From assembly GCA_964579635.1 (NCBI GenBank), contig CAZOFV010000003.1, forward strand, positions 2,768 through 66,767: a stretch of 64,000 nucleotides of DNA, written 5' to 3'. The DNA is from an uncultured Candidatus Saccharibacteria bacterium (GTDB lineage Bacteria; Patescibacteriota; Minisyncoccia; Phycocordibacterales; VMEP01). Below the pieces are notes generated by a model. It was not told where the DNA came from. It made no database searches and saw only the letters and a program-made list of their open reading frames with translations. A program made the translations under genes and the position numbers. This document shows, in pieces, positions 21,589 to 59,724 of the stretch (the stretch's first letter is position 1; each line of letters begins with the position of its first letter).

Positions 21589-22482
21589 TTGGCTAATAGT
21601 TATATAGTTTTCAGACTTATGGATAGTAATAAAAAAACAATTTTAGTAACTGGTGGGGCCGGCTTTATTGGGTCTCATTTGTGTGAGCAGTTGGTTAAGA
21701 ATGGGCATAAGGTAATTTCTTTGGATAATTATTTTACCGGGACAAAAGATAATCACGTATCTGGTGTTGATTATAGGGAAGGCCATACAAAAGATATAGA
21801 TAAACATATTACCGAAAAACCAGATATGATTTACCATTTGGGCGAATATTCTCGAGTGGAGCAGAGTTTTAACGATGTTCCCGTTGTTTGGGACTTTAAT
21901 ATTGTAGGCACATTTGCGGTGCTTGAATTTGCTAAAAAAAATAAATCAAAAATTATTTATGCTGGCTCAAGTACTAAGTTTGCCGATAATGGTTTAGGAA
22001 GATATCAAAGTCCGTATGCGTGGACCAAGGCGGCAAACACAGATCTTGTTGTTAATTATGGGGAATGGTTTGGTGTTTCTTATGCGATTACTTATTTTTA
22101 TAATGTTTATGGTCCAAGAGAGATATCTAATGGTTCCTATGCAACGGTAATCGGTATTTTTGCAGAAAAATTTAAGAAGAATGAACCGCTCTCCGTTGTT
22201 TCCCCTGGAACACAAGTGCGTAATTTTACACACGTTAAAGACATTGTTCGTGGGCTTGTTTTGGTTGGAGATAAAGGAGAGGGTGATGAATATGGACTTG
22301 GCGATGAGCGATCATATAGTATTTTAGAAATAGCGGACATGTTTGGGTCAGAAATAAAAATGCTTCCAGAAAGAAAGGGTAACAGAATGGGAGCAACTTT
22401 AAATATTTCAAAATCAAAATTACTTGGGTGGAGCGCAGAAGAAGATATAAAAAATTATATTAAAGAGATTGTTAAAGACTAG
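21589..22482 (+). CDS. NAD-dependent epimerase/dehydratase (UDP-glucuronate decarboxylase / UXS-like SDR); start probably the Met at about 21619
   Basis: ILVTGGAGFIGSHL Rossmann motif, YxxxK region and DNYFTG. Confidence 0.75.
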   Translation: MANSYIVFRLMDSNKKTILVTGGAGFIGSHLCEQLVKNGHKVISLDNYFTGTKDNHVSGVDYREGHTKDIDKHITEKPDMIYHLGEYSRVEQSFNDVPVVWDFNIVGTFAVLEFAKKNKSKIIYAGSSTKFADNGLGRYQSPYAWTKAANTDLVVNYGEWFGVSYAITYFYNVYGPREISNGSYATVIGIFAEKFKKNEPLSVVSPGTQVRNFTHVKDIVRGLVLVGDKGEGDEYGLGDERSYSILEIADMFGSEIKMLPERKGNRMGATLNISKSKLLGWSAEEDIKNYIKEIVKD

Positions 22483-22490
22483 ACGTAAAG

Positions 22491-23708
22491 ATGAAAAAAA
22501 TTCTTATATTTTCTCTCTCATATCACCCACGGTTTATTGGTGGGGCAGAGGTGGCTATTAAAGAAATTACAGATAGAATTAATAGTGAAGATATTTCCTT
22601 TGATATGGTGACATTGCGTTTTGACAGCAATCTACCGACTATCGAAAAAATAGGAAATGTAACAGTTTATCGCATTGGTTTTTCAAAAATTAACCCCACA
22701 ATCGCTGATTTAGGTAAATTCCCATTACACTTAAATAAGTTTCTGTTCCAATTTATTGCCGTGTGGAAAGCACACACACTTCATCAGAAAAATAATTATG
22801 ATGGAGTATGGGCGATGATGGCTCATTCGTGTGCTGTCCCAGCTGGACTGTTTAGCCTGTTGTACCCAAGTGTGCCTTACGTTCTGACACTTCAAGAAGG
22901 AGACCCACCCGAATACATTAAAAAGAAAATGTTGCCAATTTACCCGCTTTTTGTTTTGGGTTTTAGGCGCGCCAAGGTTTTACAAACAATTTCTACCTTT
23001 CTTTTAAAGTGGGGTCGTGATATGGGGTTTACTGGTTTTGGCCTAGTCGTTCCTAATGCGGTGGACGTAAAATATTTTTCACAAACACTTTCTCCTGAAG
23101 AACAGCTTGAGTTTAAAAATAAGGTTGGTAAAAAAGAGAGTGACATTTTCATGATCACTACCTCAAGGTTGGTTAAGAAAAATGCTGTTGATGATGTTAT
23201 TAAGTCACTAACTTATCTCCCGGAGGAATATAAATTTCTTGTTATTGGTATTGGTTCCGACAAAGAAATGCTTAAAAAACTCGCGCAAGATATTGGCGTT
23301 TCTGAAAGAGTTATTTTTTTAGGGGAGATTGAAAATAAAGAAATACCAATGTATTTAAAGATATCTGATATTTTTATTAGACCATCTCTTTCTGAGGGGT
23401 TTGGCATTTCGTTTGTTGAGGCAATGGCTTCTGGTTTGCCGGTTATTGCTACTCAAGAAGGAGGTATTTCAGATTTTCTTTTTGATCCAGAAATTAATAA
23501 AGATAAAGAGCCAACTGGGCTTGCTGTAAAAGTGCGTGATCCGAAAGGGATAGCAAAGCAAGCCATTCGATTAATGAGTGATGGTGATTTGAGGTCAAGG
23601 TTGATTAAAAATGGATTAAGTTTGGTGCGAGAGAAATATGATTGGGATAATATAGCCAAAAGTATGAAAGAAAATGTTTTTGATAGGCTTTTTGCTGATA
23701 AAAAATAA
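22491..23708 (+). CDS. Glycosyltransferase family 4
   Basis: GT-B C-terminal EGFGISFVEAMASGLPVIAT motif. Confidence 0.8.
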   Translation: MKKILIFSLSYHPRFIGGAEVAIKEITDRINSEDISFDMVTLRFDSNLPTIEKIGNVTVYRIGFSKINPTIADLGKFPLHLNKFLFQFIAVWKAHTLHQKNNYDGVWAMMAHSCAVPAGLFSLLYPSVPYVLTLQEGDPPEYIKKKMLPIYPLFVLGFRRAKVLQTISTFLLKWGRDMGFTGFGLVVPNAVDVKYFSQTLSPEEQLEFKNKVGKKESDIFMITTSRLVKKNAVDDVIKSLTYLPEEYKFLVIGIGSDKEMLKKLAQDIGVSERVIFLGEIENKEIPMYLKISDIFIRPSLSEGFGISFVEAMASGLPVIATQEGGISDFLFDPEINKDKEPTGLAVKVRDPKGIAKQAIRLMSDGDLRSRLIKNGLSLVREKYDWDNIAKSMKENVFDRLFADKK

Positions 23709-24812
23709 ATGAATACGAATAAAAAAATACTCATCGCTACAGGAATTTACCCGCCAGATATTGGGGGGCCAGCTTCGTATAGCAAAGCTCTTTTTGAAGA
23801 ATTTCCAAAGAAGGGGATTAATGTGGAGATTTTAAGTTTTGGTGAGGTTCGTTATCTACCAAAAATTATTCGACACGTTTTTTATTTTTTTAAAACAATT
23901 TTTCGCGCACGAGGGTGCGATGTTGTTTACGCTCAAGACCCAGTGTCAGTTGGTTTGCCGGCGATGATTGCTTCAAAAATATTACGCAAGAAATTTATTT
24001 TAAAAATTGTTGGTGATTATGCATGGGAGCAAGGCGTTTCCCGTTTTGGTGTGAAAGATTTATTGGATGAATTTTCAAAAAAAAGAAAAGGGTATTGTTT
24101 ATTGGTTTTATTTTTAAAACACATCGAAACCTGTGTTGCTAAAAAGGCGGATAAAATTATCGTGCCGAGTGAATATTTGAAAAGCATCGTTTCTAACTGG
24201 GGGATAGAAAAAAATAAAATAACAGTTATTTACAATTCTTTTGACGGGGAGGTTCAAAATTTACCCGAGGACAATAAAAGAGAAAGAATAATTTTATCGG
24301 CCGGCCGGCTTGTTCCATGGAAAGGTTTTTTAACGCTTGTGGCTCTTATGCCGAGACTTGTTAAACATTTTCCAGATATTAAGTTAATTATTGCAGGGGA
24401 GGGTAGTGAACGAAAGAAACTTGAAGTTGCTATTAAAGAACTTAGTTTAGAATCGAACGTTTTTTTAGCCGGAGCGCTTCCACAGGAGAAGCTTTTTAAA
24501 TATATTAAGAGTGCCTCAGTATTTGTTTTAAATACGGCCTATGAGGGTTTTTCGCATCAATTACTTGAGGTTATGGCCTTAGGGACACCAATAATAACAA
24601 CTAATATTGGTGGCAACCCAGAGGTTATAGAAAACGAGAAAAATGGCCTATTAGTAGAGCTTGATGATAGAGATGCGATTATACACTCTGTTGAGAGGGT
24701 TTTGTTAAATGAAGATTTTTCTAATAAGTTGGTACAAAACGCGAGAAAGACAGTAGAATTATTTAATCGCGAACGAATGATTAACGAGACAATCAAGGCA
24801 CTGTCTTTTTAG
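23709..24812 (+). CDS. Glycosyltransferase family 4
   Basis: EGFSHQLLEVMALGTPIITTNIGG motif. Confidence 0.8.
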   Translation: MNTNKKILIATGIYPPDIGGPASYSKALFEEFPKKGINVEILSFGEVRYLPKIIRHVFYFFKTIFRARGCDVVYAQDPVSVGLPAMIASKILRKKFILKIVGDYAWEQGVSRFGVKDLLDEFSKKRKGYCLLVLFLKHIETCVAKKADKIIVPSEYLKSIVSNWGIEKNKITVIYNSFDGEVQNLPEDNKRERIILSAGRLVPWKGFLTLVALMPRLVKHFPDIKLIIAGEGSERKKLEVAIKELSLESNVFLAGALPQEKLFKYIKSASVFVLNTAYEGFSHQLLEVMALGTPIITTNIGGNPEVIENEKNGLLVELDDRDAIIHSVERVLLNEDFSNKLVQNARKTVELFNRERMINETIKALSF

Positions 24813-24944: not shown

Positions 24945-26105
24945 ATGAAGGTTTTAATGATTTCAACTGATAAGAATATTTTGGAAGAGGGGAGCGTTGT
25001 TCGCGAGCGTATGGTTTCCTATGGGACTATTTGTGACGAGCTTCATATATTGGTAGTTGGAAAAGCAAATAGCGGGATAGTAAAATCGGGAGATGTTGTT
25101 GGGGTTAAGATTAGTTCTAGTGTTACGGCTTATTCAGTTTTATCTCATTTTAAAATCGATTCTTTTTTTAAGGCATATGGTATTGGGGTTAATATTTTAA
25201 ATAAAAACTATAAACAAAAAGTTACTCCATGGTTAATTACCGCTCAGGATCCTTTTGAGGCAGGTTTTGTTGCTTGGTGTATATCTAAAAAAACAAAATC
25301 AAAACTACAACTTCAAATTCACACTGATTTTTTAAGCCCGTATTTTTCCAGTGAATCTTTTTTAAATAAAATTCGGGTAGTAATCTCAAAGTTCTTACTC
25401 CCAAAAGCAGATGGGGTTCGTGTTGTTTCCGAGCGCATTGCTTCTTCTTTGAAAGCTAATAGCTATAAACTAAAAATTACTCCATTTGTTCTCCCTATTT
25501 TTGTTGATATAGAAAAAATAAGAAAAACTACCCCAACTGTCGATTTACATAAAAAATATTCTCAATTTGATTTTATCTTTCTCATGGCTTCACGTTTGAC
25601 TCGCGAAAAAAATATTGAAATGGCAATTGACGCAATGAAAGAGGTTAGTAAAAAATATCCAAAAGTCGGCCTCATTATTGTTGGTTCAGGATCAGAGGAA
25701 CAAAAACTTAAGCTAGAAGTTAAAAACCATGAACTAGGGGTTAGTGTGATTTTTGAATCATGGCAGAGTGATTTAACTTCTTATTACAAGACCGCCGATG
25801 CCTTTCTTTTAACTTCAAAATACGAAGGTTTTGGAATGACTCTCATTGAGGCAATAGCCTCCGATTGCCCAGTTATTTCTAGTGATGTTGGTATTGTTGG
25901 AAATATTTTAATAAAAAACGAAGACGTTTTAGTTTGCCAAAATGAAGACGTTAATTGTTTCGTCAGTAACATGAGCAGGTTTATTGAATATAAAGATGTT
26001 AGAAAAGAATTCGTGATGAGGGCACAAACTGCTCTCGGTGTTTTTCGCGGGAAAGACGAATATTTAAACAGAATGAAGGAATCATGGGTGGCGTGCTTTA
26101 TCTAA
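24945..26105 (+). CDS. Glycosyltransferase family 4
   Basis: EGFGMTLIEAIASDCPVISSDVG motif. Confidence 0.75.
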   Translation: MKVLMISTDKNILEEGSVVRERMVSYGTICDELHILVVGKANSGIVKSGDVVGVKISSSVTAYSVLSHFKIDSFFKAYGIGVNILNKNYKQKVTPWLITAQDPFEAGFVAWCISKKTKSKLQLQIHTDFLSPYFSSESFLNKIRVVISKFLLPKADGVRVVSERIASSLKANSYKLKITPFVLPIFVDIEKIRKTTPTVDLHKKYSQFDFIFLMASRLTREKNIEMAIDAMKEVSKKYPKVGLIIVGSGSEEQKLKLEVKNHELGVSVIFESWQSDLTSYYKTADAFLLTSKYEGFGMTLIEAIASDCPVISSDVGIVGNILIKNEDVLVCQNEDVNCFVSNMSRFIEYKDVRKEFVMRAQTALGVFRGKDEYLNRMKESWVACFI

Positions 26106-26572
26106 CTATTTTTATGAAAACACTTAAAAAAATATATTATAAATTTCACAGGAGTTCTCGTTCTTACGCTCCACGCTTATATGAAATTATTTACAAAAGA
26201 AAAGATGCAGTTAAATATATTTTTTCCGGCGGGATGGCAACGCTCACAAACCTTTCTGTTTTGTTTATATTGACTGAGGTTTTTGGTATTTATTATCTGG
26301 TATCATCTGTTTTTGCTTTTATTTTTTCAATTATAGTTAGTTTTAGTATGCAAAAATTTTGGACATTTGGAGACTCTTCAAAAGAAAATATTCACAAACA
26401 GTTTGCTTATTACCTATTTATTGTTCTTTTGAACTTAGTATTAAATACCTTTTCGGTTTATGTTTTTGTAGAATATTTACACCTTTGGTATTTTATTGCT
26501 CAGTTTTTTGCTGGTGTTATTATTGCGGTGGTTAGTTTTTTTGCTTATCGTAATCTAGTGTTTAAAAACTAA
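26084..26572 (+). CDS. GtrA family membrane protein (polyprenyl-phosphate-sugar flippase-like)
   Basis: Four TM helices and FSGGMATLTNLSVLFIL, typical of GtrA. Confidence 0.75.
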   Translation: MGGVLYLTIFMKTLKKIYYKFHRSSRSYAPRLYEIIYKRKDAVKYIFSGGMATLTNLSVLFILTEVFGIYYLVSSVFAFIFSIIVSFSMQKFWTFGDSSKENIHKQFAYYLFIVLLNLVLNTFSVYVFVEYLHLWYFIAQFFAGVIIAVVSFFAYRNLVFKN

Positions 26573-26636: not shown

Positions 26637-27743
26637 ATGAAGCCAAAACTCTGTTATGTCCTCCCTCGCTATGAGACCAAAGATGCGTCTCATTTTTCGC
26701 ATATACACGATTTTTTGGGCAAAATAGGGGGTATTTTTGACGTATACCTCATTATTGAAAAGGGAACAAAACCACCAGTTTCCTTTGGTTATACAAAGTC
26801 ATATATAGTTAAATCAAAGTTTATTTTTTTTAGGATTATTGAAACTAAAATAATTCTCTTAAGAGCACGCCTTTCTGGCTATAAAGATTTTTACGTTCAT
26901 TATTCTTTTCTCTCTGCATTTTTTTCTTCAATTATTGTTAGAGTTTTCGGGGGTCGTGTTTTTTATTGGAATTGTGGAGAACCATGGAAATATAAACGTA
27001 ATGTTTTTCGAGAAATTTTTGAAAGATTGGTCTATAAGATAATTACACATTTAGTAACCGGAGCGCCTTCTCTTGCGGATGAATATGCAAAGCGCTACGG
27101 AATAAAAAGAGATTTAGTTTTGGTGATGCCAAATTGGATAGATTTAGAACGCTTTAAAAACACACTTTCTCGCGAAGATTCTCGTAGTAATCTAAGTATT
27201 CCACAAGAATCGAAAGTAGTTTTATTTGTACACCATCTTTCTCCGAGAAAGGGTTCCCGTATGATTTTACCTGTGGCTAAAAAAGTTATTGATTCGTTTC
27301 CAGATACTATTTTTATTGTTGCGGGCTCCGGTCCCGATGAAAATTTTTTGCGTGATGAAGTAGTTCGTTTAGGTCTTAATAGAAATATTCGTTTAGTTGG
27401 CGCAGTAGCAAATCGAGAGCTTCCTGGTTATTTTATAGCTTCAGATGTATTTTTTATGCCTTCAGAAGAAGAGGGTTTCCCTCGAGTGCTTCTTGAGTCA
27501 ATGGCAATTGGTATTCCCTTTGTTGCAAGTGATGTTGGTGCCGTGCGCGATATTATTCCAAAGGGTATGATGGAGAATGTTGTATCCTCAAATAATGTAG
27601 ATAGTTTTGCTGATAGAATATGTTCATTCTTAAGACAGGATTCAATAAGTCTTAATTTGGTAGCAGAAAAACTAAAGACCCACGTAGCTAATTATGATGT
27701 GTCCTTAGTTTTTCAGATATTTGTTAAGTTGTTAAAAAAATAA
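26637..27743 (+). CDS. Glycosyltransferase family 4
   Basis: EGFPRVLLESMAIGIPFVASDVG motif. Confidence 0.8.
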   Translation: MKPKLCYVLPRYETKDASHFSHIHDFLGKIGGIFDVYLIIEKGTKPPVSFGYTKSYIVKSKFIFFRIIETKIILLRARLSGYKDFYVHYSFLSAFFSSIIVRVFGGRVFYWNCGEPWKYKRNVFREIFERLVYKIITHLVTGAPSLADEYAKRYGIKRDLVLVMPNWIDLERFKNTLSREDSRSNLSIPQESKVVLFVHHLSPRKGSRMILPVAKKVIDSFPDTIFIVAGSGPDENFLRDEVVRLGLNRNIRLVGAVANRELPGYFIASDVFFMPSEEEGFPRVLLESMAIGIPFVASDVGAVRDIIPKGMMENVVSSNNVDSFADRICSFLRQDSISLNLVAEKLKTHVANYDVSLVFQIFVKLLKK

Positions 27744-28384
27744 TGAGCGTAAAACAATTCGAAAATAATCGCTGGGCGAAAGATGAACAAGTTGTTTGCT
27801 TCCGACATGAAGCAGCTCTTTCGATGATTGATAAAGGAGCAGTCCTTGATCTTGGTTCTGGCGACGGCCTCTTCCTAGCACTTTTAAAGAAAAAAGGGAT
27901 AAAGGGGAATGGTTTAGACATTTCCGAAGAGGGTGTCTTTAGAACAAGGGAGAAGGGGATAGAAGCATCAGTTTTTGATTTTAACGATAAAGTTCCATTT
28001 GAAGACAACACTTTTGATTATGTTTCAATGCTCGATCTTTTAGAACATCTTTATACCCCGCAAGATCTTTTAATGGAAGCCACCCGTGTTTCTAAAAAAT
28101 TCGTAATAATAAGTGTGCCCAATTTTAGTTCTTTGCCAGCCAGGATTCAGACTCTTTTAGGGAAGGTTCCAGAAAACAACCAACCAAAAAAGGGGCACGT
28201 CTTTTGGTTTAATTATCTGGTTTTAAGAAAGATGGCCGATAGCGCAGGACTTCGTCTAGTTGAGATACGAATGAATACTTTTTGGCAGGATTATTTTTTG
28301 ATTGGATTAATTTCAAAATTTATGACAAAAATTTGGCCATCTTTATTTGCCTTATCTTTTGTTGTTAAGTTAGAAAAGAAATGA
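27743..28384 (+). CDS. Class I SAM-dependent methyltransferase (Methyltransf_11-like)
   Basis: VLDLGSGDGLF motif I and LLEHL. Confidence 0.75.
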   Translation: MSVKQFENNRWAKDEQVVCFRHEAALSMIDKGAVLDLGSGDGLFLALLKKKGIKGNGLDISEEGVFRTREKGIEASVFDFNDKVPFEDNTFDYVSMLDLLEHLYTPQDLLMEATRVSKKFVIISVPNFSSLPARIQTLLGKVPENNQPKKGHVFWFNYLVLRKMADSAGLRLVEIRMNTFWQDYFLIGLISKFMTKIWPSLFALSFVVKLEKK

Positions 28385-28668
28385 TCCCGTACAAAATAAT
28401 TTAAGCTATGTTTTATACATATGTACTAAAAAGTAAGAAAGATGGTAAGTTATATACGGGGTATACAAATAACTTACGGAAACGTTTTAAAGATCACAAT
28501 GATGGAAAATCAACGTATACTAAAGGAAGGGGTCCTTACGAACTAATTTATTATGAAGCATGTCTCGCGGAAGAAGATGCAAGGTCGAGAGAATTATATT
28601 TAAAAGCTGGGAGAGGTAAGCGTTTTATAAAGTCTCGTTTAAAACGTTTCCTATTTTGTACGGGATGA
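28382..28668 (+). mobile_element. About 287 bp element bounded by terminal inverted repeats TGATCCCGTACAAAATA / TATTTTGTACGGGATGA, carrying the GIY-YIG ORF
   Basis: Perfect 15 bp TIR (ATCCCGTACAAAATA) at about 28382-28398 and 28652-28668. Its only cargo is the 86 aa GIY-YIG gene. Related empty copies are at 30431-30557 and 24816-24947. Confidence 0.6.
28408..28668 (+). CDS. Stand-alone GIY-YIG nuclease domain protein (UPF0213-like)
   Basis: YTYVLKS...GKLYTGYTNNLRKRFKDHN...ELIYYE matches the GIY-(10-11)-YIG catalytic motif with R and E residues. The last codons are encoded by the right TIR. Confidence 0.75.
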   Translation: MFYTYVLKSKKDGKLYTGYTNNLRKRFKDHNDGKSTYTKGRGPYELIYYEACLAEEDARSRELYLKAGRGKRFIKSRLKRFLFCTG

Positions 28669-29285
28669 CTTATTCAATAATTAGAGATGGGGAGTATAAA
28701 AAGTTAAAAACTATTTCTGTAGATGGCTTGATTCTTGATTTAGGTGGAAATTTTAATTCTGAGTACCACGACATAATTAAGGGTAATCATACATTTACTT
28801 CGGTTAATATTAGTGCCCAGTACGGGTGCGACATGGTTTTTGATATACAGAAATCTTTTCCGGTTGAAGATGAAAAATTTGACGCAGTTATTTGTATGAA
28901 TGTTTTGGAGCATGTTTATAAATTTAATAATGTTATAGAAGAGACGTTTCGTGTCTTAAGGCACGGAGGATCTTTTATTTTTGCAGTTCCGTTCATGCAC
29001 CATATTCACGGTAGCCCCGATGATTATTTTAGATATACCCGTTCGGCAATAGAAGAAATGCTCAAAGAGAATAAGTTTGAAAATATAGAAATAGAGGAAA
29101 TAGGATTAGGTTTATTCTCTGTATTTTACCAATCTGCCTCCGGAATGTTCCCGAGCTTTCTTAAGGGCTTTTTTAAAAATCTCGCAGTTTTTATAGATTC
29201 AATATTCTTCAAAATATCAAAGAGATATCAAAATGTTAGCAAGAGAATACCTTTGGGGTATTTTGTTGTAGCGAGAAAGAGCTAA
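28656..29285 (+). CDS. Class I SAM-dependent methyltransferase (Methyltransf_11-like); likely true start the ATG at 28665 overlapping the GIY-YIG stop
   Basis: VICMNVLEHV...LRHGGSFIFAVPF. Confidence 0.7.
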   Translation: MYGMTYSIIRDGEYKKLKTISVDGLILDLGGNFNSEYHDIIKGNHTFTSVNISAQYGCDMVFDIQKSFPVEDEKFDAVICMNVLEHVYKFNNVIEETFRVLRHGGSFIFAVPFMHHIHGSPDDYFRYTRSAIEEMLKENKFENIEIEEIGLGLFSVFYQSASGMFPSFLKGFFKNLAVFIDSIFFKISKRYQNVSKRIPLGYFVVARKS

Positions 29286-51098: not shown

Positions 51099-52857
51099 GG
51101 TATTTTTGATGGTGTTTAAACCAAAGTGCTAAACAAAACAAAGACCATATTTTATAAGGATTACTACTCTCGTCTTTATTTGAGTTATTTAAAATATTCA
51201 GCAATTCTTTTTTATTAAAAAGTTCGTTTAACTGTTGGTTTTCGTTTATGGTGTTTTTGACTATTTGTTTAAAACTTTCTATCTGTAGCCACTCTTTTAC
51301 AGGAGCACCAAAACCCTGCTTTCTTCTGTAGACAAATTCTTTTGGCATGATTTCAGTTAATATGTCTTTTAGTATTATTTTCCCACCTTTTTTGTTTACT
51401 TTGTATTTTTCTGGAAGATTATATATGAATTCCGCCATTTTGTGGTCTAAGAAAGGGGATCGAACCTCAAGTCCATGCATCATGCTCATTCGATCTATTT
51501 TAACAAGAAGTTGTCCGGGTAGGTATGTTTCTATGTCAAAATTATTTATTGCTTTTATTTTATTTACATTTGTTTTTTCGTTATGTTTTTCAATATCCTC
51601 GTTTAAAAAAGAATGATTTTTCCATAGATTAATACGTTCTTTTTTTGAAAATATTGCTACATGTTTTAAGTATTCTTTAAATTGATTCGAAAAAAGTACG
51701 TTTTTTAAGTAAATAAGTTTGTTTGTATTCCAGTATTTCCAGTACCAGCCATATCCCATAAGTAATTCATCGGCACCATCGCCAGATATAGCCACTTTAA
51801 CATTTGAAGAGGTTAGTTCCGATATTAGATGTTGAGAAATGTTTGAAGAGTCAGCGTGTGGTTCATCTAGGTATTCCATCACTTTGTTAATCTCTTTAAG
51901 AATTAGTTCGCTTTTTGTTTGTAGTGTGTAATGTTTTGTTCCTATTTTTTCAGATGCTTGTTTTGCGAAAGGAAGTTCATTTATATACCCCTCATAACCA
52001 ACAGAGAATGTTTTTATTGGCGTACTGGTGTATTTTTGTGCATAAGCTGTTGCGATGGTTGAATCAACACCACCAGAAAGGAAACTGCCTATTTCAACAT
52101 CGGCTACCATCCTCTTCTTTACAGCATCATTAAATAATACTTTTAACTTTTCTTTTGCGTTTTCGTAAGTTATTTCGATTGGTTTATCTTCTAGTTTCCA
52201 ATATTGCCAAGTTTTTATTTCCCCATTTTTCACAACACCTGCATGTGCCGGAAGAAGAGTGTGTATGTTTGAATAGATTGTTTTCCACGGTGGTATATAT
52301 GAAAGTTGTAAATAATTATCAAGTGTTTTTTTATCAATTATTCCTTTTATTAGGTTGCTAGCAAAAATTGCTTTAATTTCTGAGGCACCCAAAAAGGTGT
52401 CATTAACCCATGCATAATAGAATGGTTTTTTGCCAAATCGGTCACGAGCTATAAACAACTCCTTTTTTTCATTATTCCAAATAGAAAAAGAAAACATACC
52501 ATCTAGGTGTTGTGGGCAATCATTGCCATATTCTACGTATGCTTTTAGGATTACCTCGGTATCTGAGTTTGTAGAAAAAACATGTCCAATTTTCTCCAAT
52601 TCTTTTTTTAATTCACGATAGTTATAAATCTCTCCGTTAAAAGTAATGGCGAGATCTTTTTCGTTGTCGCGCATTGGCTGGTGCCCCATATTAATGTCTA
52701 TAATCGAAAGGCGGGTTTGTCCTAAAATACACTCCGGAAATTTTAAAACACCGTTATCGTCTGGTCCGCGCTTAGACAACGACAAAATCATTCCCTTGAT
52801 ATTTTCATCAGAGAAATCATTTATGTTTTTTCCGGTAATGCTAATTATTCCACACAT
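51091..52857 (-). CDS. asnB: Asparagine synthase (glutamine-hydrolysing)-like amidotransferase
   Basis: MCGI N-terminal nucleophile Cys and SGGVDS PP-loop. 588 aa. Its location suggests a glycan amidotransferase role (WbpS-like) rather than housekeeping AsnB. Confidence 0.8.
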   Translation of the reverse strand: MCGIISITGKNINDFSDENIKGMILSLSKRGPDDNGVLKFPECILGQTRLSIIDINMGHQPMRDNEKDLAITFNGEIYNYRELKKELEKIGHVFSTNSDTEVILKAYVEYGNDCPQHLDGMFSFSIWNNEKKELFIARDRFGKKPFYYAWVNDTFLGASEIKAIFASNLIKGIIDKKTLDNYLQLSYIPPWKTIYSNIHTLLPAHAGVVKNGEIKTWQYWKLEDKPIEITYENAKEKLKVLFNDAVKKRMVADVEIGSFLSGGVDSTIATAYAQKYTSTPIKTFSVGYEGYINELPFAKQASEKIGTKHYTLQTKSELILKEINKVMEYLDEPHADSSNISQHLISELTSSNVKVAISGDGADELLMGYGWYWKYWNTNKLIYLKNVLFSNQFKEYLKHVAIFSKKERINLWKNHSFLNEDIEKHNEKTNVNKIKAINNFDIETYLPGQLLVKIDRMSMMHGLEVRSPFLDHKMAEFIYNLPEKYKVNKKGGKIILKDILTEIMPKEFVYRRKQGFGAPVKEWLQIESFKQIVKNTINENQQLNELFNKKELLNILNNSNKDESSNPYKIWSLFCLALWFKHHQKYHE

Positions 52858-52864
52858 ATAATAT

Positions 52865-53755
52865 TTAAATTTTTATCCAGCTGTTTGGTATTAAATCGAC
52901 AGTATTATTTTTAGGAGCATTTGCGAACCATTTTTGAGGGGCGATAACTATTTTTTCTTTACTAGGGTTTAACCAGGCACCCCACCAACTGAAACTACTA
53001 TTTGCAATAATATGGTGTTTACACTTGGACATCAATATTAAATCCTCGGCATTTTTATCATTATCGTTTTCCACTAATGTGAAATTGTATTCTAGCCCTT
53101 TAAGTTTCGGTAAAAAATTTTCTATAACCCAGGGATAATTATCTGAAAAAATAAAAAAATTAGGAGAAGGCACCTTGGATGCAATTTGGTTTATAGCTTC
53201 TATGTAATATTCTGCGGAACAGAATCCATGCCAAGGCCTAATGTGTTCCGATGCATATCTTCGCACGTGAATTGATACAGAATTTGTTTCTTCAATTTTT
53301 TTTAATAGCTCTAGGCTATGTGTTGAAAATGGTGCTTTTAGTGTTATTTCTTTTCGTATTTCATCTGCTATGTCTTTAAAATACTTTTCGCTTTGCCAAA
53401 AACCCTCAAAGTACAAAGCTTTTGATGAAAATACTTCTTGGTCGTATGTGAATGTTTTTTCTCCATAGTACCAAGGTTTTATTATTTTTTTTAACCTTAA
53501 TCGATGGTATAAAAAATTAAAAAACGCATTATGTTTACGTAACCAAACGAATCCACCCAAATCTGATTCTTTTGCGATATTTTCCTTTATATTGAATTTC
53601 GATAACCCATATGGATCGGCGGTGTAATAGGTATAAAATGGCGTTACATCCAAAGCAAAATCAATTTTCCTTTTTGACGATAGTGCTCGGGCGAAGGCGT
53701 ATTGGAATATTTGATTACATAAACCACCATTAAGTTTTACAATTAGTTTTTTCAC
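52865..53755 (-). CDS. Glycosyltransferase family 11 (alpha-1,2-fucosyltransferase, FutC/WbsJ-like)
   Basis: LNGGLCNQIFQYAF, SIHVRRYASEH (motif I) and ANSSFSWWGAWL (motif IV). Confidence 0.8.
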   Translation of the reverse strand: MKKLIVKLNGGLCNQIFQYAFARALSSKRKIDFALDVTPFYTYYTADPYGLSKFNIKENIAKESDLGGFVWLRKHNAFFNFLYHRLRLKKIIKPWYYGEKTFTYDQEVFSSKALYFEGFWQSEKYFKDIADEIRKEITLKAPFSTHSLELLKKIEETNSVSIHVRRYASEHIRPWHGFCSAEYYIEAINQIASKVPSPNFFIFSDNYPWVIENFLPKLKGLEYNFTLVENDNDKNAEDLILMSKCKHHIIANSSFSWWGAWLNPSKEKIVIAPQKWFANAPKNNTVDLIPNSWIKI

Positions 53756-54660
53756 GATAGTTTTTTTGTTAATTTTTTAATATATTTTCTAATATTTCTT
53801 TCTTTTGTGTGGATTATAAATGCTCTTGGTAGTCGTATTGTGAGTAATATAATAGCTAATATTTTATATTTAGTTCCATTGAGTGCCTCTATATGTCCTT
53901 TTAAATACGGCCAAAATCTACCAAAAGGGAACATGTGGTTTTTTGGGTTTTTAAATTGCATAGCCGTAACTATTTCATTTTCTTTATGTATTGATAGTTG
54001 GGGACTAGATGCGCCACCAAGCCTTTTTTTAAAGAGTGGTTTTTGGTCAACGACAACACTGAATCTGCTTATAGCCGCTAAACTAAACATATAGTCTTGC
54101 CCCCAAACGTTTCTTTGGGGGTATACTTCCCACACTTTTTTTAATACTTCAGTTTTGAAAAGCGAGTACATTAAATTACATTTGCCGAGGATTTCTGGTT
54201 GAAGAATATATTTTGCTACCTGTAGATATCCGGGTTTCCCGGAAAGGTTTGTCATCCAAATGGCTTCTATTAATGTGCGACCAAAAGAGTCGATTGCGGT
54301 TGTACAGGTTGTGGCTAATCCAAGGTCTTTGTCGTCTTTAAAGTGCCCCAGGCACGTTTCTAGATATTTTTCTTCCCATAAGTCGTCTTGAGCAGCCCAC
54401 ATAAAATACTCCGTGTTTGCCTTGTCGAGAACAAATTTAAAATTAGCAAACATCCCTATATTTTTTTCTTGCTTAAAATAGGTGATTCGTGAATCGTCTT
54501 TTACAAATTCTTTACATATCGTTTCCGTACTATCGGTAGATGAGTCGTCAGATATAAAAATTTTCCAGTCGGTAAAAGTTTGGGCGCGCAAAGAATTAAT
54601 CGCTTCTTTTAGAAATCGTTCACCGTTATATACAGGCATTCCAATAAATATTTTTGTCAT
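53752..54660 (-). CDS. Glycosyltransferase family 2
   Basis: IFIGMPVYNGERFLKEAINSLRAQTFTDWKIFISDDSSTDST. Confidence 0.8.
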   Translation of the reverse strand: MTKIFIGMPVYNGERFLKEAINSLRAQTFTDWKIFISDDSSTDSTETICKEFVKDDSRITYFKQEKNIGMFANFKFVLDKANTEYFMWAAQDDLWEEKYLETCLGHFKDDKDLGLATTCTTAIDSFGRTLIEAIWMTNLSGKPGYLQVAKYILQPEILGKCNLMYSLFKTEVLKKVWEVYPQRNVWGQDYMFSLAAISRFSVVVDQKPLFKKRLGGASSPQLSIHKENEIVTAMQFKNPKNHMFPFGRFWPYLKGHIEALNGTKYKILAIILLTIRLPRAFIIHTKERNIRKYIKKLTKKLS

Positions 54661-55326
54661 CTACTTTATTTTTTTAAGATATCCTCTCGTGTTGAATGTC
54701 GTATCTTTGCCAAACATGTCACATAATTTATTGTCTACTATAAAATCGTCATTTGTTTTCAAGAATTCGTTGATTGCTTTTAGCGGGCCACCGTTAAGTG
54801 GCTTATCTCTTTTAAGTCTAGTTACTATTCCGTCCTCTATTATTAAATATGACCCAACTGGAATTAATTTAGAAAAAGTTTTTATTGTTTCTAAGGTATC
54901 TTTATATAAATGAGAGGCATCATCAATAACAATTATTTTCTTAAATTTATTTACATTATTTAAATCATACTTTTTCCAGCCATCTGTAAAAAATTTTATA
55001 CGAGGGTGTTGTTTTGTTTTTTTATCCACGCGGTCTTCTATATCAATTGTGTGGATTTCACCATGACCAATTGCATCCATTAGGTCAGCAAGATAAAGAG
55101 ATGTTCCTCCAAAATTTGTTCCGATTTCAATAACCAGATCAGGCTTAATTTCAGATAACAGCATTTGGTATATTACATAATCAAAAGGGCACTTAAGGGC
55201 GGGAATTCCTCTGTAAGTTACATTAAAGTGTCCACTATAAATATCCCAAACGCTATATGAACCCATAAGGTATTTTAGGACAGCGTTTCTTTTTGCGTTA
55301 TAAAAATTTTTTATTTTATGTTCCAT
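54661..55326 (-). CDS. CmcI-family class I SAM-dependent methyltransferase (rhamnosyl O-methyltransferase / cephalosporin hydroxylase family)
   Basis: ALKCPFDYVIYQMLL...LVIEIGTNFGGTSLYLADL resembles Pfam CmcI. Adjacent to the wzt ABC ATPase. Confidence 0.65.
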   Translation of the reverse strand: MEHKIKNFYNAKRNAVLKYLMGSYSVWDIYSGHFNVTYRGIPALKCPFDYVIYQMLLSEIKPDLVIEIGTNFGGTSLYLADLMDAIGHGEIHTIDIEDRVDKKTKQHPRIKFFTDGWKKYDLNNVNKFKKIIVIDDASHLYKDTLETIKTFSKLIPVGSYLIIEDGIVTRLKRDKPLNGGPLKAINEFLKTNDDFIVDNKLCDMFGKDTTFNTRGYLKKIK

Positions 55327-56627
55327 TTTAATTTAGGCCTTACAACACCAGGGATGCGTTGGTTGAAATCATTCTTCTTTGCAGTTTCAAGGTTTGCCAT
55401 GACCTGGAAAACAAGCGCATCTTGTTTATAGAAATGTACTTTAAGCGGAAGCATTGTTGAAAGAGCAACCCCAGCTATGTAGGTACCCTCGTTCAATAGG
55501 TTTGCTGGTATCCATGCAATAGCCTTATGTCTTCCAGCAACATCTAATTTTTCATCTAAATCAGAATGGCTAATAAACGCATATTCACCAGCACTAGTGA
55601 ATATATGAATGTTTGGTACAAGATTTTGATTATTTTGCAAAACATCAAATTCCATTTCTATGCCAATTTCCTTGTCTGAAAGAACAAATGATATATCCTC
55701 TCCTTCATTATTTATTATTTTTGCTTTTATGAGTTTAGCGACATCATTGCCAATATTTTTATCAATTAAATCAATTGATGTTGCGTTACTGTTTTTGTCA
55801 TTTAGGTAATGTGCTACGACATCTTTCGTTTCCCCAATTATTTTTACTTTACCTTTTTCTAAAAGAATACATCTTTTGCACAGATTTTGTATTGCCGCCA
55901 TATTGTGGCTTACAAAAAGAATAGTACGTCCTGATTTTTTTGTAACCTCTTCCATTTTCCCTAAACATTTTTTCTGGAATTCAGCATCACCGACGGCGAG
56001 AACCTCATCAACTAAGAGAATATCTGGCTCCATGTGGGCAGCAACAGAGAAGGCGAGGCGAACATACATTCCACTCGAATAGTATTTAACAGGTGTATCA
56101 AGAAATTTATCAATGCCAGCAAAAGCAACTATTTCATCGAATTTTTTAACAATTTCTTTTTTTGTCATTCCCAAGATTGCTCCGTTGAGAAAAATATTTT
56201 CTCTCCCGGTAAGTTCTGGGTGAAAACCAGTACCAACTTCAAGTAGGGAAGCTACCTTACCTTTCATTTTAATTTCTCCTGTGGTTGGTGGAGTTATTCC
56301 TGTGAGAATTTTTAGAAGTGTTGATTTACCAGCACCGTTGTGTCCAATAATTCCAACCACTTCTCCTGGTTCAATATTAAAGCTGACGTCTTTAAGAGCC
56401 CAAAAATCTTCTTTTGTATCAATACCAGCAATTTCTTTTGCTTTCTTTTTTAAGAAAAATAAAGGACGTTTGATAATAGCGGTAAGCACATCCCGTAGCG
56501 CTACATAGTTACCACGGTGATGGTTTATTGTGTATTTTTTCCCTAAATTTTTTACTTCGATAATATTATTATTCATGTTTTTATGCGATATCAGCAAAAT
56601 ACCTTTCCACTTTTTTAAAATAAACAA
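55311..56627 (-). CDS. wzt: Polysaccharide ABC exporter ATP-binding protein (Wzt/TagH-like) with C-terminal carbohydrate-binding extension
   Basis: GIIGHNGAGKSTLLK Walker A, LSSGMYVRLAF signature, about 190 aa extra C-terminal domain. Confidence 0.85.
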   Translation of the reverse strand: MFILKKWKGILLISHKNMNNNIIEVKNLGKKYTINHHRGNYVALRDVLTAIIKRPLFFLKKKAKEIAGIDTKEDFWALKDVSFNIEPGEVVGIIGHNGAGKSTLLKILTGITPPTTGEIKMKGKVASLLEVGTGFHPELTGRENIFLNGAILGMTKKEIVKKFDEIVAFAGIDKFLDTPVKYYSSGMYVRLAFSVAAHMEPDILLVDEVLAVGDAEFQKKCLGKMEEVTKKSGRTILFVSHNMAAIQNLCKRCILLEKGKVKIIGETKDVVAHYLNDKNSNATSIDLIDKNIGNDVAKLIKAKIINNEGEDISFVLSDKEIGIEMEFDVLQNNQNLVPNIHIFTSAGEYAFISHSDLDEKLDVAGRHKAIAWIPANLLNEGTYIAGVALSTMLPLKVHFYKQDALVFQVMANLETAKKNDFNQRIPGVVRPKLKWNIK

Positions 56628-57402
56628 CTCCTATGGCAAGTAGCACTGCACACGCCGTGAATGAAATTCCAATAAGCGTCCAATTGATTGGCGCAGTTCC
56701 TAAAATTCCTGCACGTGCTGACTGAATGACACCCATCATAGGGTTGAAGGCAAGAATCCATGAATATTTTCCGGCGATACTTGCTGGATAAATTACTGGA
56801 GTTAAGAACATTAGTATTTGAATAAAGAACGGTAAAACATAGCGCACGTCGCGATATTTCACATTAATTGCGGCGAGAAATAATCCGCCACCAACCGAAG
56901 CCATAAAGGTTATTGCAAGTAGGAGAGGGAGAATAAATAAACCTGAAAGATGTGGTGTGTAGCCATAATAAATCATCATTCCTATCAGAATTACTGAAGC
57001 TATCGCAAAATCGACAAGTTTTGTTGCAACAGAAGCCAAAGGAAGAATTAGGCGTGGAAAATACACCTTGGTTATTATTGATTGATTACTAATAAGGACA
57101 CTACTTGTTTCTGAAAGTGCACTAGAAAAAAATTGCCAAAAAAGAAGTCCTGTGTACACAAAGATTGGATACGGCACATTATCAGATGGAATTTTTAACA
57201 GTGTCCCAAAGAAAACACTAAAAACAACCATTGTCATGAACGGCTGGAATACTGCCCAGCCAATACCTATGATGGTTTGTTTGTATCGTACTTTAAAATC
57301 ACGCCATACGAAAAAATAAAGAAGCTCCTTATAGTCCCAGAGTTCTTTGAAATCTCTTACGCTTAGAACTTTTTTCGGTTTTATAATTGTTGTAGTAGTC
57401 AT
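56581..57402 (-). CDS. wzm: ABC-2 type polysaccharide exporter permease (Wzm/KpsM-like)
   Basis: Six TM helices and ABC-2 family architecture. Overlaps wzt. Confidence 0.8.
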   Translation of the reverse strand: MTTTTIIKPKKVLSVRDFKELWDYKELLYFFVWRDFKVRYKQTIIGIGWAVFQPFMTMVVFSVFFGTLLKIPSDNVPYPIFVYTGLLFWQFFSSALSETSSVLISNQSIITKVYFPRLILPLASVATKLVDFAIASVILIGMMIYYGYTPHLSGLFILPLLLAITFMASVGGGLFLAAINVKYRDVRYVLPFFIQILMFLTPVIYPASIAGKYSWILAFNPMMGVIQSARAGILGTAPINWTLIGISFTACAVLLAIGVVYFKKVERYFADIA

Positions 57403-58361: not shown

Positions 58362-58378
58362 GTCCTATAAGTTATAGT

Positions 58379-59482
58379 CTACATTACCATACGTTCTTTT
58401 TCTAAATCCGATTCGGTCATTAATTTAACAAGCTCTTTGAATTTTATCTTTGGTTTCCACCCGAGTTTATTTTTTGCTTTTGAATAATCTCCCTTGAGGA
58501 CATCCACCTCTGCTGGGCGGAAGTATCTTGGGTCGATTTCGATTATTGTTTTTCCAGTTTTTTTATCAATACCTTTTTCGTTTGATCCTTTCCCCTTCCA
58601 TACAATATCCATTCCAAGTATTTTTCCAGCTTCTTCAACAAACTCTCTAACACTGTGTGATTCGTTGGTAGCTAAAATAAAATCATCTGGTTCCTTGTGT
58701 TGCAACATAAGCCACATTCCGTAAACATAATCTTTTGCGTGGCCCCAGTCGCGCATAGCATCAAGGTTTCCAAGATATAATTTTTGTTCTTTGCCGAGCT
58801 TGATACGGGAAAGACCTTGGGTGATTTTTCTTGTAACAAAAGTTTCTCCACGTCTTTCACTTTCGTGGTTAAACAGAATTCCGTTTGAGGCAAACATTCC
58901 GTAGCTCTCACGATAGTTTTTTGTTATCCAATATGCATAAACTTTTGCCACACCGTATGGTGAGCGTGGATGGAAAGGAGTCGTTTCTTTAAGTGGTATT
59001 TCTTTCGCCTTACCAAACATTTCACTTGAAGATGCTTGGTAAAATTTTGTTTTACTTAAACCAGCTTCTCTCATTGCATCAAGAAGACGGATTGTTCCAA
59101 GGCCCGTGACGTCGCCCGTGTATTCTGGAATATCAAAACTAACGCGTACGTGACTCTGTGCTCCAAGGTGATAAATTTCATCTGGTTTTATTTTGTTTAA
59201 AACTCGGTTTAAGTTGCTTGAGTCTGAGAGGTCTCCAAAGTGCAGAAAAAATTTATTATTTGATTTATGTGGGTCGTTATAAATATGATCTATTTTTTGT
59301 GTATTGAAGTTGCTAGCGCGACGAATAAGCCCGTGCACTTCATATCCTTTTTCTAAAAGTAATTCAGCTAAATACGAACCATCTTGTCCGGTGATACCAG
59401 TGATAAGAGCTACTTTATTTTTTGTTGACACTTTATTGCTATTTTTTTTATTTGTTATTTTTTTCATTTTTTTGCCTACCAC
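58379..59482 (-). CDS. gmd: GDP-mannose 4,6-dehydratase
   Basis: [37 protein letters not shown] is the canonical Gmd N-terminus. Confidence 0.92.
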
Positions 59483-59724
59483 TTATTTATTTTATTAACC
59501 ACTTTCTTTTTAATTTTTAAATAAGATTGAGTTGCTTCTTTTTCCAGGTCAGGGGAGAGGATACGGAGGAGTTCTTTTCCCATAATTCTGTATTGCCCGC
59601 CGACTTTGTTGGCACGAATGAGGCCGTTTTTAAGCATGCGTTTTACAGTGCTATCGCTTATTTTAAGAATTGTTTGTGTTTCCGCTGTGGTATATACAGC
59701 ATTTGGGTGTATCTCCTGATTCAT
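59476..59724 (-). CDS. Small helix-turn-helix DNA-binding protein (HTH_17/excisionase-type)
   Basis: [38 protein letters not shown]. Overlaps the gmd start by 7 nt. Confidence 0.65.

Follow-up and report, generated by a model that had tools for sequence, protein, structure and literature searches.

A probable Wzm/Wzt-dependent surface-glycan locus of a Paceibacterota bacterium, with a candidate capping methyltransferase and a predicted modified-heptose cassette

What kind of glycan would a bacterium without an outer membrane assemble with an O-antigen-like set of genes, and by which route would it leave the cell? The question is raised by a 64,000-nucleotide stretch of contig CAZOFV010000003.1 (hereafter the window, to which all coordinates refer unless another contig is named), in which a surface-glycan gene set of ~38 kb (21589-59482) comprises 39 genes, namely 38 open reading frames (ORFs) of at least 100 aa and one gene of 86 aa. 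All 38 of the larger ORFs have a Pfam match. A preliminary description of this DNA, made from its letters and ORF translations, had proposed a glycan cluster of about 38 genes and 38 kb, and nearly every item that it listed was borne out by Pfam and NCBIfam scans. By its GroEL and by the homologues of the cluster, the host is a Paceibacterota (Parcubacteria, Candidate Phyla Radiation [CPR]) bacterium. That such a host lacks an outer membrane, as had been presumed, is a reasonable premise taken from its group rather than from this cell: cryo-transmission electron microscopy of groundwater CPR cells reveals an S-layer, and an outer membrane is absent (bioRxiv 10.1101/2020.05.14.094862). The locus is very probably a Wzm/Wzt-dependent surface-glycan locus of this bacterium, and it is likely that glycan assembly follows the ABC-transporter-dependent scheme, with cap-export and side-chain steps, proposed below.

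Four functional parts can be distinguished, which are a right arm (49063-59482), a sugar cassette (38885-49058), a run of methyltransferase genes with a GT11-like gene (35721-38881), and a left arm (21589-35724). The genes for export lie in the right arm, on the minus strand, which reads gmd-fcl-wzm-wzt-cmcI-GT2-GT11-asnB-GT4-GT2 with overlapping or near-abutting genes. The ABC-2 permease Wzm (56581..57402; PF01061, 63.7 bits) is 82% identical to its homologue in Parcubacteria GW2011_GWA1_47_8. Wzt (55311..56576) combines an ABC ATPase (PF00005, 87.1 bits) with a C-terminal carbohydrate-binding domain (CBD; about residues 269-421), which exceeds the Pfam cut-off for Wzt_C (PF14524, 36.1 vs. 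30.4 bits). Its best PDB match is the full-length Wzt of Aquifex (8dku/7k2t, 240 bits), in an alignment that enters the CBD and runs to residue 373. The wzm/wzt pair with a C-terminal Wzt extension had thus been recognised correctly. A Pfam scan of every ORF of at least 100 aa in 21589-60786 detected neither Wzx nor Wzy nor any further polysaccharide exporter, which leaves Wzm/Wzt as the sole polymer export route in the locus.

The right-arm order recurs at 52-82% identity in loci from other Patescibacteria metagenome-assembled genomes (MAGs; L006 and L008, contigs and loci from other assemblies being given L numbers). It is also kept in L012, but there the CmcI-family gene is distant (30%), and it is partly kept in L004, L007, L016, L020, and L034. 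Within it, the block at 49063-54660 has the same order at 52-71% identity in L006, L008, and L012, and partly in L007, L016, L020, L034, and L151. The stretch from the FkbM gene to GT11 is syntenic, at 61-96% identity, in the Paceibacterota MAG GCA_041661305.1. Literature searches returned no description of a Patescibacteria Wzm/Wzt or O-antigen-like cluster, the survey of Mann, Kimber and Whitfield (Glycobiology 2019) lying outside their coverage. Similar clusters are already in public Patescibacteria MAGs, unremarked.

What could decide which chains are exported? The gene after wzt encodes a 221-aa S-adenosylmethionine (SAM) methyltransferase of the RMNT_CmcI family (54661..55326, minus strand; PF04989, 113.3 vs. 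23.2 bits). The family domain occupies residues 35-220 and Pfam detects no other domain; the match to the CmcI structure 2br3 is weak (E 4e-4), and the rhamnosyl O-methyltransferase equivalog NF045824 is not reached (78.1 bits, cut-off 400). Neither a WbdD-type kinase domain nor a coiled-coil ruler, the defining parts of WbdD (O9a), is present in this protein. The chain-length mechanism of WbdD is thus not applicable here, and only a simple methyl-cap variant would be possible. In the systems that have been studied, a terminator adds a terminal methyl or methylphosphate group, the carbohydrate-binding module (CBM) of Wzt reads this cap, and capped chains alone are exported (PMC11231755, PMC3482155, PMC7820976, PMC2943079). 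By analogy, CmcI, translationally coupled to wzt, would methylate the non-reducing end of the glycan, and the C-terminal domain of Wzt would recognise the cap so that only finished chains leave via Wzm/Wzt.

Position and co-occurrence both bear on this proposal. The cmcI gene overlaps wzt by 16 nt, in keeping with the tight packing of the locus, where stops overlap starts also between GT4 and methyltransferase at 27743 and between DUF268 and methyltransferase at 38117. It follows wzt directly in L004, L006, and L007, while another ORF intervenes in L008. In a co-variation test over 80 genome loci, Wzt was split into its nucleotide-binding domain (NBD) and its CBD, a CBD was counted as similar at 100 bits or more, and a CmcI-family gene was sought within 10 kb. 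Such a gene was found in 6 of the 8 loci with a similar CBD and in 3 of the 72 others (Fisher p = 7e-6, without phylogenetic correction); within Patescibacteria, the association has a Fisher p of 0.016. One of the two similar-CBD loci without CmcI lies on a contig that stops ~0.5 kb after wzt. Three of the six CmcI-bearing similar-CBD loci are from Bacteroidota, and their NBD is less similar than that of ~19 CmcI-less Patescibacteria loci, so that CBD type and methyltransferase appear to travel together, apart from the transporter core. More generally, among 67 genes lying directly downstream of wzt, 7 are of the Methyltransf_11 family, 7 FkbM, 4 CmcI, and 2 TylF, i.e., up to ~20 methyltransferases if these counts do not overlap. 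Linkage, co-variation, and this wider pattern favour a capped-export reading. The preliminary description had placed cmcI and wzt within the WbdD/Wzt paradigm of a chain-length-controlling cap, of which the linkage and the co-occurrence with the CBD hold up, and the WbdD mechanism itself does not. From these data, the chances that CmcI makes the cap that Wzt reads appear about evenly balanced.

The same arrangement can be compared with three groups of known loci. In E. coli O8/O9a and K. pneumoniae O3/O5/O7, the polymer is finished in the cytoplasm and receives a methyl-containing cap, and the CBM of Wzt admits capped chains only (PMC11231755, PMC3482155). A literature search for a methyl-fucose cap in Rhizobium etli found nothing. 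The present locus is predicted from its genes to resemble them, but the candidate terminator is a single RMNT_CmcI domain without the kinase, ruler or glycosyltransferase (GT) fusion of the WbdD-type enzymes, and the host has no outer membrane or lipid A-core acceptor. The 'TET operon' for the common polysaccharide antigen of Pseudomonas syringae has GDP-sugar genes, wzm, wzt with a C-terminal domain, a stand-alone O-methyltransferase gene and GT genes in nearly the same order, and its wzt-to-GT part is variable and exchanged between lineages (PMC7820976). P. syringae, however, has gmd-rmd, D-rhamnan, and a bifunctional GT4, whereas here fcl takes the place of rmd, GT2, GT11, and GT4 enzymes occur together with AsnB, and the host is a monoderm CPR bacterium. 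The slg clusters of the monoderms Geobacillus stearothermophilus NRS 2004/3a and Paenibacillus alvei likewise have Wzm/Wzt and overlapping wzm, wzt, and methyltransferase-bearing genes, and a 2-O-methyl cap has been proposed to be read by their Wzt; P. alvei shares an asparagine-synthase homologue, a cytidylyltransferase, and a lipid-linked route for a side-chain glucose (PMC2943079). Unlike the present locus, the slg clusters carry the methyltransferase as a domain of the GT WsaE and use rhamnose-based sugars, and they encode an initiating WsaP/WsfP and an oligosaccharyl:protein transferase, WsaB, neither of which is in the window. The comparison with O-antigen and S-layer glycan clusters suggested beforehand thus shows an architecture that parallels the P. 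syringae and Geobacillus/Paenibacillus systems and, as described below, Gtr-type systems.

One rival, which we regard as somewhat doubtful, gives CmcI the role of an ordinary O-methyltransferase for internal sugars, alone or as one among several. The C-terminal domain of Wzt would then recognise another terminal or repeat feature, and chain length would be set by the stoichiometry of transporter and GTs or by another terminator (DUF268, FkbM, or a terminal GT). By family names in Pfam and NCBIfam, the sole named characterised sugar-modifying member of RMNT_CmcI methylates glycolipid rhamnose and not a polymer cap. CmcI reaches only 78 of the 400 bits required for that glycolipid-rhamnose equivalog, it lacks the coiled-coil ruler, and in other Patescibacteria, e.g., L015, a DUF268 or FkbM gene follows wzt. 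Several observations weigh against the cap assignment from the same side: the association between CBD and CmcI comes from few, phylogenetically non-independent loci with flanks of 10 kb only; the Bacteroidota CmcI gene stands 3-8 kb from wzt rather than adjacent to it; and the association is broken by L008 (CmcI with a diverged CBD) and L026 (a similar CBD without a CmcI match). The terminator could also be any of the seven other methyltransferases of the locus. Against the internal role stand the overlap of cmcI with wzt, kept as a position in the closest relatives; the presence of CmcI, tracked better by CBD than by NBD similarity; and the match between a methyltransferase right after wzt and the studied P. 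syringae TET operon and G. stearothermophilus wzm-wzt-wsaE.

The C-terminal part of Wzt is variable in its own right. Among loci L004-L083, wzt is readable to its stop in 77 and spans ~350-460 codons, mostly 400-450, which leaves room for a C-terminal extension of ~150 aa. In Patescibacteria, this extension is often unrecognisably different while the ATPase core is 72-78% identical, which suggests that the substrate-recognition domain of Wzt is swapped frequently within the group.

Which sugars would enter the glycan? The first precursor follows from gmd (58379-59482) and fcl (57411-58361), both claimed earlier, both on the minus strand in the right arm, and both above the NCBIfam equivalog cut-offs (TIGR01472, 584 vs. 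415, and NF047922, 502.2 vs. 500, respectively); at equivalog level, Gmd and Fcl would make GDP-L-fucose. The second is predicted from a conserved modified-heptose cassette (38885-49058), which the preliminary description had overlooked. Use of both GDP-fucose and a modified heptose by the locus is likely. A GmhA-like sedoheptulose-7-phosphate isomerase (48486..49058, plus strand; PF13580; TIGR00441, 188.5 vs. 209), a GHMP kinase of the HddA/WcbL type (40350..41312, minus strand), and a small cytidylyl/adenylyl-transferase-like nucleotidyltransferase (38885..39319, minus strand; PF01467, 56 bits; RfaE domain II, 57 bits, below the cut-off), the candidate sugar-1-phosphate activator, would together make a nucleoside diphosphate (NDP)-heptose. 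For the kinase, the heptose-7-phosphate-kinase family NF049969 is the best family (141.6 bits vs. a cut-off of 600), and the best PDB matches are the heptose kinases 4n3o, WcbL, and 3k85.

Two dehydratases would then convert this precursor to NDP-3,6-dideoxy-4-keto-heptose. The short-chain dehydrogenase/reductase (SDR) protein at 42676..43704 (plus strand) resembles NDP-heptose 4,6-dehydratases; it matches the GDP-D-glycero-D-manno-heptose 4,6-dehydratase of C. jejuni (7us5) with 201 bits and GDP-mannose dehydratases with at most 136 bits, and a second Gmd was rejected on these grounds. The DegT-family protein at 41309..42496 (minus strand; PF01041, 252 bits) is a putative ColD-type sugar 3-dehydratase dependent on pyridoxamine phosphate (PMP). 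Its best PDB match is ColD (2gms, 194 bits), and a His replaces the catalytic Lys of aminotransferases, aligned with His188 of ColD, the position mutated to Asn in 3b8x; an aminotransferase was therefore rejected. A second SDR, a putative epimerase/reductase (39362..40336, minus strand; PF01370, 93 bits), is kept with the cassette in L084, L149, and L151, and at ~50% in L088/L089.

The remaining genes of the cassette encode a short pair of thiamine pyrophosphate-dependent E1-alpha-like (45494-46132; PF00676) and E1-beta-like (46136-46672; PF02779) proteins and a class B, B12-binding radical SAM enzyme (B12-rSAM; 43838..45379; PF04055, 58 bits; PF02310, 41.7 bits), all on the plus strand. The E1 genes are always beside the rSAM and ColD-like genes (L084, L087-L089, L149-L152, L158, and L159), and the ColD-like/E1-alpha/E1-beta/rSAM genes group together in every homologous locus examined, including those of Verrucomicrobiota. 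With the SDR, these enzymes would elaborate the keto-heptose, probably to a C-branched and/or C-methylated dideoxyheptose, a product that would follow from the enzyme families. B12-rSAM reaches no NCBIfam equivalog, its best matches (HpnJ, BchE, PhpK, and AprD4) being far below their cut-offs and of differing chemistries, and it can be called a putative methyltransferase only. Its gene has a GC content of 0.473 (GC3 0.48) in a cluster of 0.347 (0.49 vs. 0.36 in relatives). It is 73% identical to its counterpart in L151 (10001-11542 of that contig), though the flanking genes are 91-96% identical, and the family is ~70% identical between Patescibacteria and Verrucomicrobiota. The pattern looks like repeated xenologous replacement or an unusual constraint.

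Precedents exist for the separate steps. The C. jejuni HS:5/HS:11 pathways to 3,6-dideoxyheptoses, in which the same chemistry is established, have a heptose 4,6-dehydratase, a C3-dehydratase dependent on pyridoxal phosphate or PMP, and an SDR epimerase/reductase (PMC10440746). The cassette differs from them in having a cytidylyltransferase-like rather than an HddC-like protein and no GmhB, and in the additional E1-alpha/beta and B12-rSAM genes. Pairs like the E1 component of pyruvate dehydrogenase attach two-carbon branches to 4-keto deoxysugars, as for paulomycose, and E1-alpha/E1-beta-like genes occur in such pathways as Plm8/Plm9 (paulomycose), AviB1/AviB2 (eurekanate), and YerE (yersiniose) (PMC4802897). 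Those belong to Streptomyces antibiotic or Yersinia O-antigen pathways and act on hexoses. The pair encoded here is short, with subunits of 212 and 178 aa; it probably acts on a heptose and invariably comes with a B12-rSAM gene. On the evidence of these families, a tentative candidate for the product is a branched or C-methylated 3,6-dideoxyheptose.

The cassette was also seen in other settings. In L158 (1694-6491), of Verrucomicrobiota type, an E1-alpha-E1-beta-ColD-like-rSAM operon with full-length E1 subunits lies in an exosortase (EpsH/EpsI) exopolysaccharide locus, and in L159 (2846-10114), also of Verrucomicrobiota type, the operon occurs with genes for a GHMP kinase, an NTP_transferase, and a NUDIX protein. 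In the Patescibacteria locus L149 (16839-21256), the cassette lies beside two NeuB-like genes, a UDP-GlcNAc 2-epimerase-like gene, and a CMP-transferase gene, which point to a nonulosonic-acid pathway in the same glycan locus.

How would the chain be built and decorated? Up to 14 cytoplasmic GTs (8 GT4, 4 GT2, and 2 GT11-like) would extend it on a polyprenyl-diphosphate primer, which would come from an initiating transferase encoded outside the window. Eight GT4 enzymes were found by PF00534/PF13692 where at least seven had been claimed; seven of them lie in the left arm, at 22491-23708, 23709-24812, and 24945-26105 (PF00534, 121-146 bits; same order in L155), 26637..27743 (PF00534, 113.7 bits), and 31653..32798 (PF00534, 86.2 bits) on the plus strand, and at 29286-30434 and 30555-31604 (PF13439 and PF00534) on the minus strand. 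The eighth (49935-51098) belongs to the right-arm block (49063..54660, minus strand; Pfam/NCBIfam) together with GT2 (49063-49938), the AsnB-type amidotransferase (51091-52857), GT11 (52865-53755), and a further GT2 (53752-54660). Five GT2 enzymes had been counted, but PF00535 finds only four, at 34162, 47506, 49063, and 53752; that at 47506-48438 (minus strand; Pfam) is 82% identical in L151. The GT2 at 53752 was considered as a GtrB-like polyprenyl-phosphate transferase on account of a C-terminal hydrophobic segment and rejected, its PDB matches being soluble GT2 enzymes, e.g., chondroitin synthase and GalT1; the GT2 domain at 34162 suits that role better. The AsnB-like amidotransferase was confirmed (NCBIfam, 488 vs. 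267) and would amidate a carboxylate.

One of the two GT11 enzymes claimed earlier is clear (52865; PF01531, 98.5 bits vs. a cut-off of 23.9) and is a predicted alpha-1,2-fucosyltransferase. The other (35721..36653, minus strand) falls below that cut-off with 19.2 bits, and its sequence identifies it as a divergent GT11 relative of the fucosyltransferase superfamily rather than a filed member. Its family aligns with the GT11 family at an hhalign probability of 97.6% (E 2.8e-12), and it has the motifs HIRQGDY (H-x-R-x-G-D-Y) and GNxLxNQLWNY. PDB sequence searches with this protein and with the GT-C protein at 32783 returned nothing useful.

Several SAM methyltransferases would O-methylate residues of the chain. 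The domain annotation suggested earlier was run with Pfam and NCBIfam and did not reassign the putative methyltransferases to unrelated folds. At least nine methyltransferases had been claimed, and eight SAM-methyltransferase domains score above the Pfam gathering thresholds, the ninth being B12-rSAM, which is not confidently countable. They are the class I enzymes at 27743..28384 (plus strand, MetW/Methyltransf_11 type; PF07021, 72.6 bits; PF08241, 50.3 bits), whose start overlaps the stop of the upstream GT4, and at 28665..29285 (plus strand, Methyltransf_11; 206 aa, ILDLGG motif; PF08241, 42.1 bits), formerly listed at 28656 and having its true ATG at 28665; the C-terminus of the 34162 protein; the run on the minus strand (36654..38881; Pfam) of FkbM (36654-37478), Methyltransf_11 (37491-38120), and DUF268/MT11 (38117-38881); a Methyltransf_11/FtsJ-like enzyme (46730-47488, minus strand; Pfam), 91% identical in L151; and RMNT_CmcI at 54661. 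The FkbM-Methyltransf_11-DUF268 run has the same order, at 77-84% identity, in the Paceibacterota MAG locus L151, where its order with the divergent GT11-like gene (35721-38881) is also conserved. That the glycan is heavily methylated is plausible from this gene content.

A further step is suggested by membrane proteins of the left arm, which contains, besides its seven GT4 and two methyltransferase genes, a gtrA gene, a GT-C gene, and a GT2-methyltransferase fusion. This three-component module of membrane glycosylation genes had been overlooked. The GtrA-like small membrane protein (26084..26572, plus strand; PF04138, 77 bits) has four transmembrane (TM)-like segments and is a candidate polyprenyl-phosphate-sugar flippase; the membrane GT-C (32783..34165, plus strand, PMT_2/ArnT-like; PF13231, 28.7 vs. 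26.1 bits) has ~10. Directly downstream of the GT-C gene lies a fusion (34162..35724, plus strand) of a DPMS/ArnC/GtrB-like GT2 (PF00535, 118 bits), a SAM methyltransferase domain (PF08241, 43.3 bits), and a C-terminal TM segment, the best PDB matches of the GT2 domain being 5mlz (DPMS), ArnC, and GtrB. The fusion might make a methylated polyprenyl-phosphate sugar donor. An exact-sequence look-up of its product found nothing, although both L153 and L155 carry the gene. In L151, that role is seemingly taken by a GT2-GtrA fusion, and in L004, homologues of GtrA and GT-C (the latter 41% identical) lie beside wzm.

Three-component extracytoplasmic glycosylation is typified by GtrA, a polyprenyl-phosphate GT2, and GT-C, and the GtrA/GtrB/Gtr* systems of Klebsiella and Citrobacter likewise have GtrA, a DPMS/GtrB-like GT2, and a GT-C in one ABC-transporter glycan locus (PMC11127046). 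They differ from the present genes, where the GT2 is fused to a methyltransferase domain and gtrA is 6 kb from the other two. With its DPMS-like GT2, the window has a Gtr-like three-component set of predicted function. By their domains, these proteins would add, outside the cell, a side-chain sugar from a polyprenyl-phosphate donor.

A second rival, which we consider unlikely, concerns this left arm. The stretch would be a glycan island with at least two products, an ABC-exported fucose/heptose polymer (~35.7-59.5 kb) and the product of a GT4-rich pathway with GtrA, GT-C, and the DPMS-like GT2 (21.6-35.7 kb), e.g., protein O-glycosylation of S-layer or pilin proteins, or a glycolipid. Synteny in other MAGs is shown for the right and middle parts only, the left arm has its own strand switches and the insertion of a GIY-YIG gene, and L097-L099 have homologues of GT4a/b/c with gmd/fcl in a different arrangement. 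PMT_2-type GT-C enzymes include protein O-mannosyltransferases according to the Pfam family description, and fifteen GTs are many for one polymer. On the other hand, the left arm is without a second polymer exporter or a Wzx-type flippase, the GtrA and GT-C homologues of L004 adjoin wzm, a GT2-GtrA fusion and a large membrane protein occur within the conserved part of L151, and the stretch as a whole is unbroken in independent assemblies as well as in a strain of 98.4% identity.

The scheme of one capped, ABC-exported polymer with extracytoplasmic side chains has further points on its debit side. The 14 cytoplasmic GTs exceed the needs of a single repeat-unit polymer. Among the window ORFs of at least 100 aa, there is no initiating phosphoglycosyltransferase of the WecA/WbaP type, no Wzy_C ligase/oligosaccharyltransferase, and no LCP (LytR_cpsA_psr) domain, which means that the start and the end of the pathway are unseen. 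The gene for an initiating transferase may lie elsewhere in the genome, as in the case of wecA of E. coli, and an enzyme encoded elsewhere would likewise join the polymer to an S-layer protein, peptidoglycan or a lipid. The GmhB phosphatase was not found among the window ORFs, the nucleotidyltransferase is of the PF01467 type and not of the HddC type (PF00483), and the locus has no obvious uronic-acid-forming partner (uronic-acid dehydrogenase) for AsnB.

Is the stretch a natural one? Three mutually overlapping Logan contigs from independent assemblies have the same gene order as the window, namely L155 (window 22925-35116, 99.99% identity), L153 (31707-52495, 98.4% identity, from another sequencing run), and L001 (47106-57507, 99.99% identity). 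Reads that match the locus occur in SRR13723392-97 and SRR16110226. As they tile 22.9-57.5 kb, misassembly or chimerism was ruled out, and the split across unrelated contigs that had been named as a possible refutation was not found, the Logan contigs being collinear with the window over 22,925-57,507. The cluster has a GC content of 0.347 and its flanks one of 0.380; flanking genes of 36-38% GC encode GroES/GroEL, MurC, glutamate racemase, a pilin-like protein, LemA, and a TrwB-like ATPase. Named GroEL homologues are nearly all from Patescibacteria/Parcubacteria lineages, the rest being labelled only 'bacterium'. Parcubacteria/Paceibacterota MAGs, among them a 476-kb contig of GCA_041661305.1, supply both the nearest Wzm and Wzt (up to 82% and 70% identity, respectively) and the syntenic clusters; groundwater assemblies from Hainich contain relatives too. 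An assembly chimera, or a recently transferred Gram-negative O-antigen cluster binned with CPR sequence, might be invoked because the pathway type is classically Gram-negative, Wzt homologues of ~48% identity occur in Bacteroidota and Verrucomicrobiota, and the GC content of the rSAM gene looks foreign, but it is highly improbable given the three independent contigs, the closeness in GC to flanks with CPR-type housekeeping genes, the GroEL neighbours, which are nearly all Patescibacteria where named, and the closest Wzm/Wzt and syntenic clusters in many Patescibacteria MAGs.

A few other genes lie within or next to the locus. The left arm begins with an SDR epimerase/dehydratase (21589..22482, plus strand; PF01370, 145 bits), which reaches no NCBIfam equivalog. 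The 86-aa gene encodes a stand-alone GIY-YIG protein (28408..28668, plus strand), as read from the sequence and from the PF01541 match of the corresponding gene in L155. Wedged between two methyltransferase genes, with its stop overlapping the downstream methyltransferase ATG, it is found at the same place in three independent Logan contigs and is probably a passenger rather than a pathway enzyme; the preliminary description had passed over it. Just past gmd and divergent from it, a gene for a 313-aa protein (59845..60786, plus strand) is a possible accessory gene. The C-terminal half of the protein is a cytidylyltransferase-like domain resembling RfaE domain II (PF01467, 53 bits; RfaE domain II, 80 bits, below the cut-off) and its N-terminal 160 aa are weakly cupin/PMI-like (PF01050, E 7e-4, sub-threshold). 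The product is possibly a sugar-activating fusion of an unusual kind.

Directly upstream of the cluster (18278-21578, plus strand) are genes for a TrwB/VirD4-like coupling ATPase and a 477-aa protein with two lamin-tail domains, a PKD domain, and N- and C-terminal hydrophobic segments, of which a 26% identical homologue lies near the cluster in L018. The latter, as a candidate surface protein, might serve as an acceptor for the glycan. Just past the cluster, a 189-aa protein (60904-61473, plus strand) combines a hydrophobic segment at its N-terminus with a PaaX central Cas2-like domain (71 bits), and a 47% homologue of it lies near the sugar cassette in L085. In the upstream flank (plus strand), a DUF4015 putative glycoside hydrolase is encoded at 16651-17904, and a 765-aa ribonucleotide reductase-like protein with an ATP-cone and a B12-type insertion domain at 9260-11557; the latter is possibly a second cobalamin-dependent enzyme in the window.

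Most CPR/Patescibacteria are uncultivated epibionts whose surface is the interface with hosts and phages, and to our knowledge almost nothing is known of their surface chemistry. The typical genome of the group is ~1 Mb, of which this locus may occupy a few per cent. Such a share, together with the syntenic relatives in other MAGs, suggests a heavy investment in an O-antigen-like glycan that would be fucosylated, heptose-containing, and probably heavily methylated (hydrophobic), and would be exported by Wzm/Wzt in a cell without an outer membrane. The scale of the locus and its density of methyltransferases are noteworthy in a reduced genome. Every component is from a known family and no new kind of machinery is revealed; if new chemistry is concealed anywhere, the likeliest place is the heptose/E1/B12-rSAM cassette. 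The locus offers testable targets in the Wzt binding domain with its putative CmcI cap and in an eight-gene sugar cassette shared with Verrucomicrobiota. A bolder proposal, for which we have low confidence, has two separate parts. In one, interchangeable methyltransferase/Wzt-CBD pairs would serve Patescibacteria as a checkpoint that ties the export of an S-layer or cell-wall glycan to its cap. In the other, the cassette would be an undescribed pathway to a higher sugar with eight to ten carbons, 3,6-dideoxygenated and branched and/or C-methylated. If the latter is true, such a sugar would be widespread in the surface glycans of uncultivated Patescibacteria and Verrucomicrobiota, and a CPR surface glycan would depend on cobalamin.

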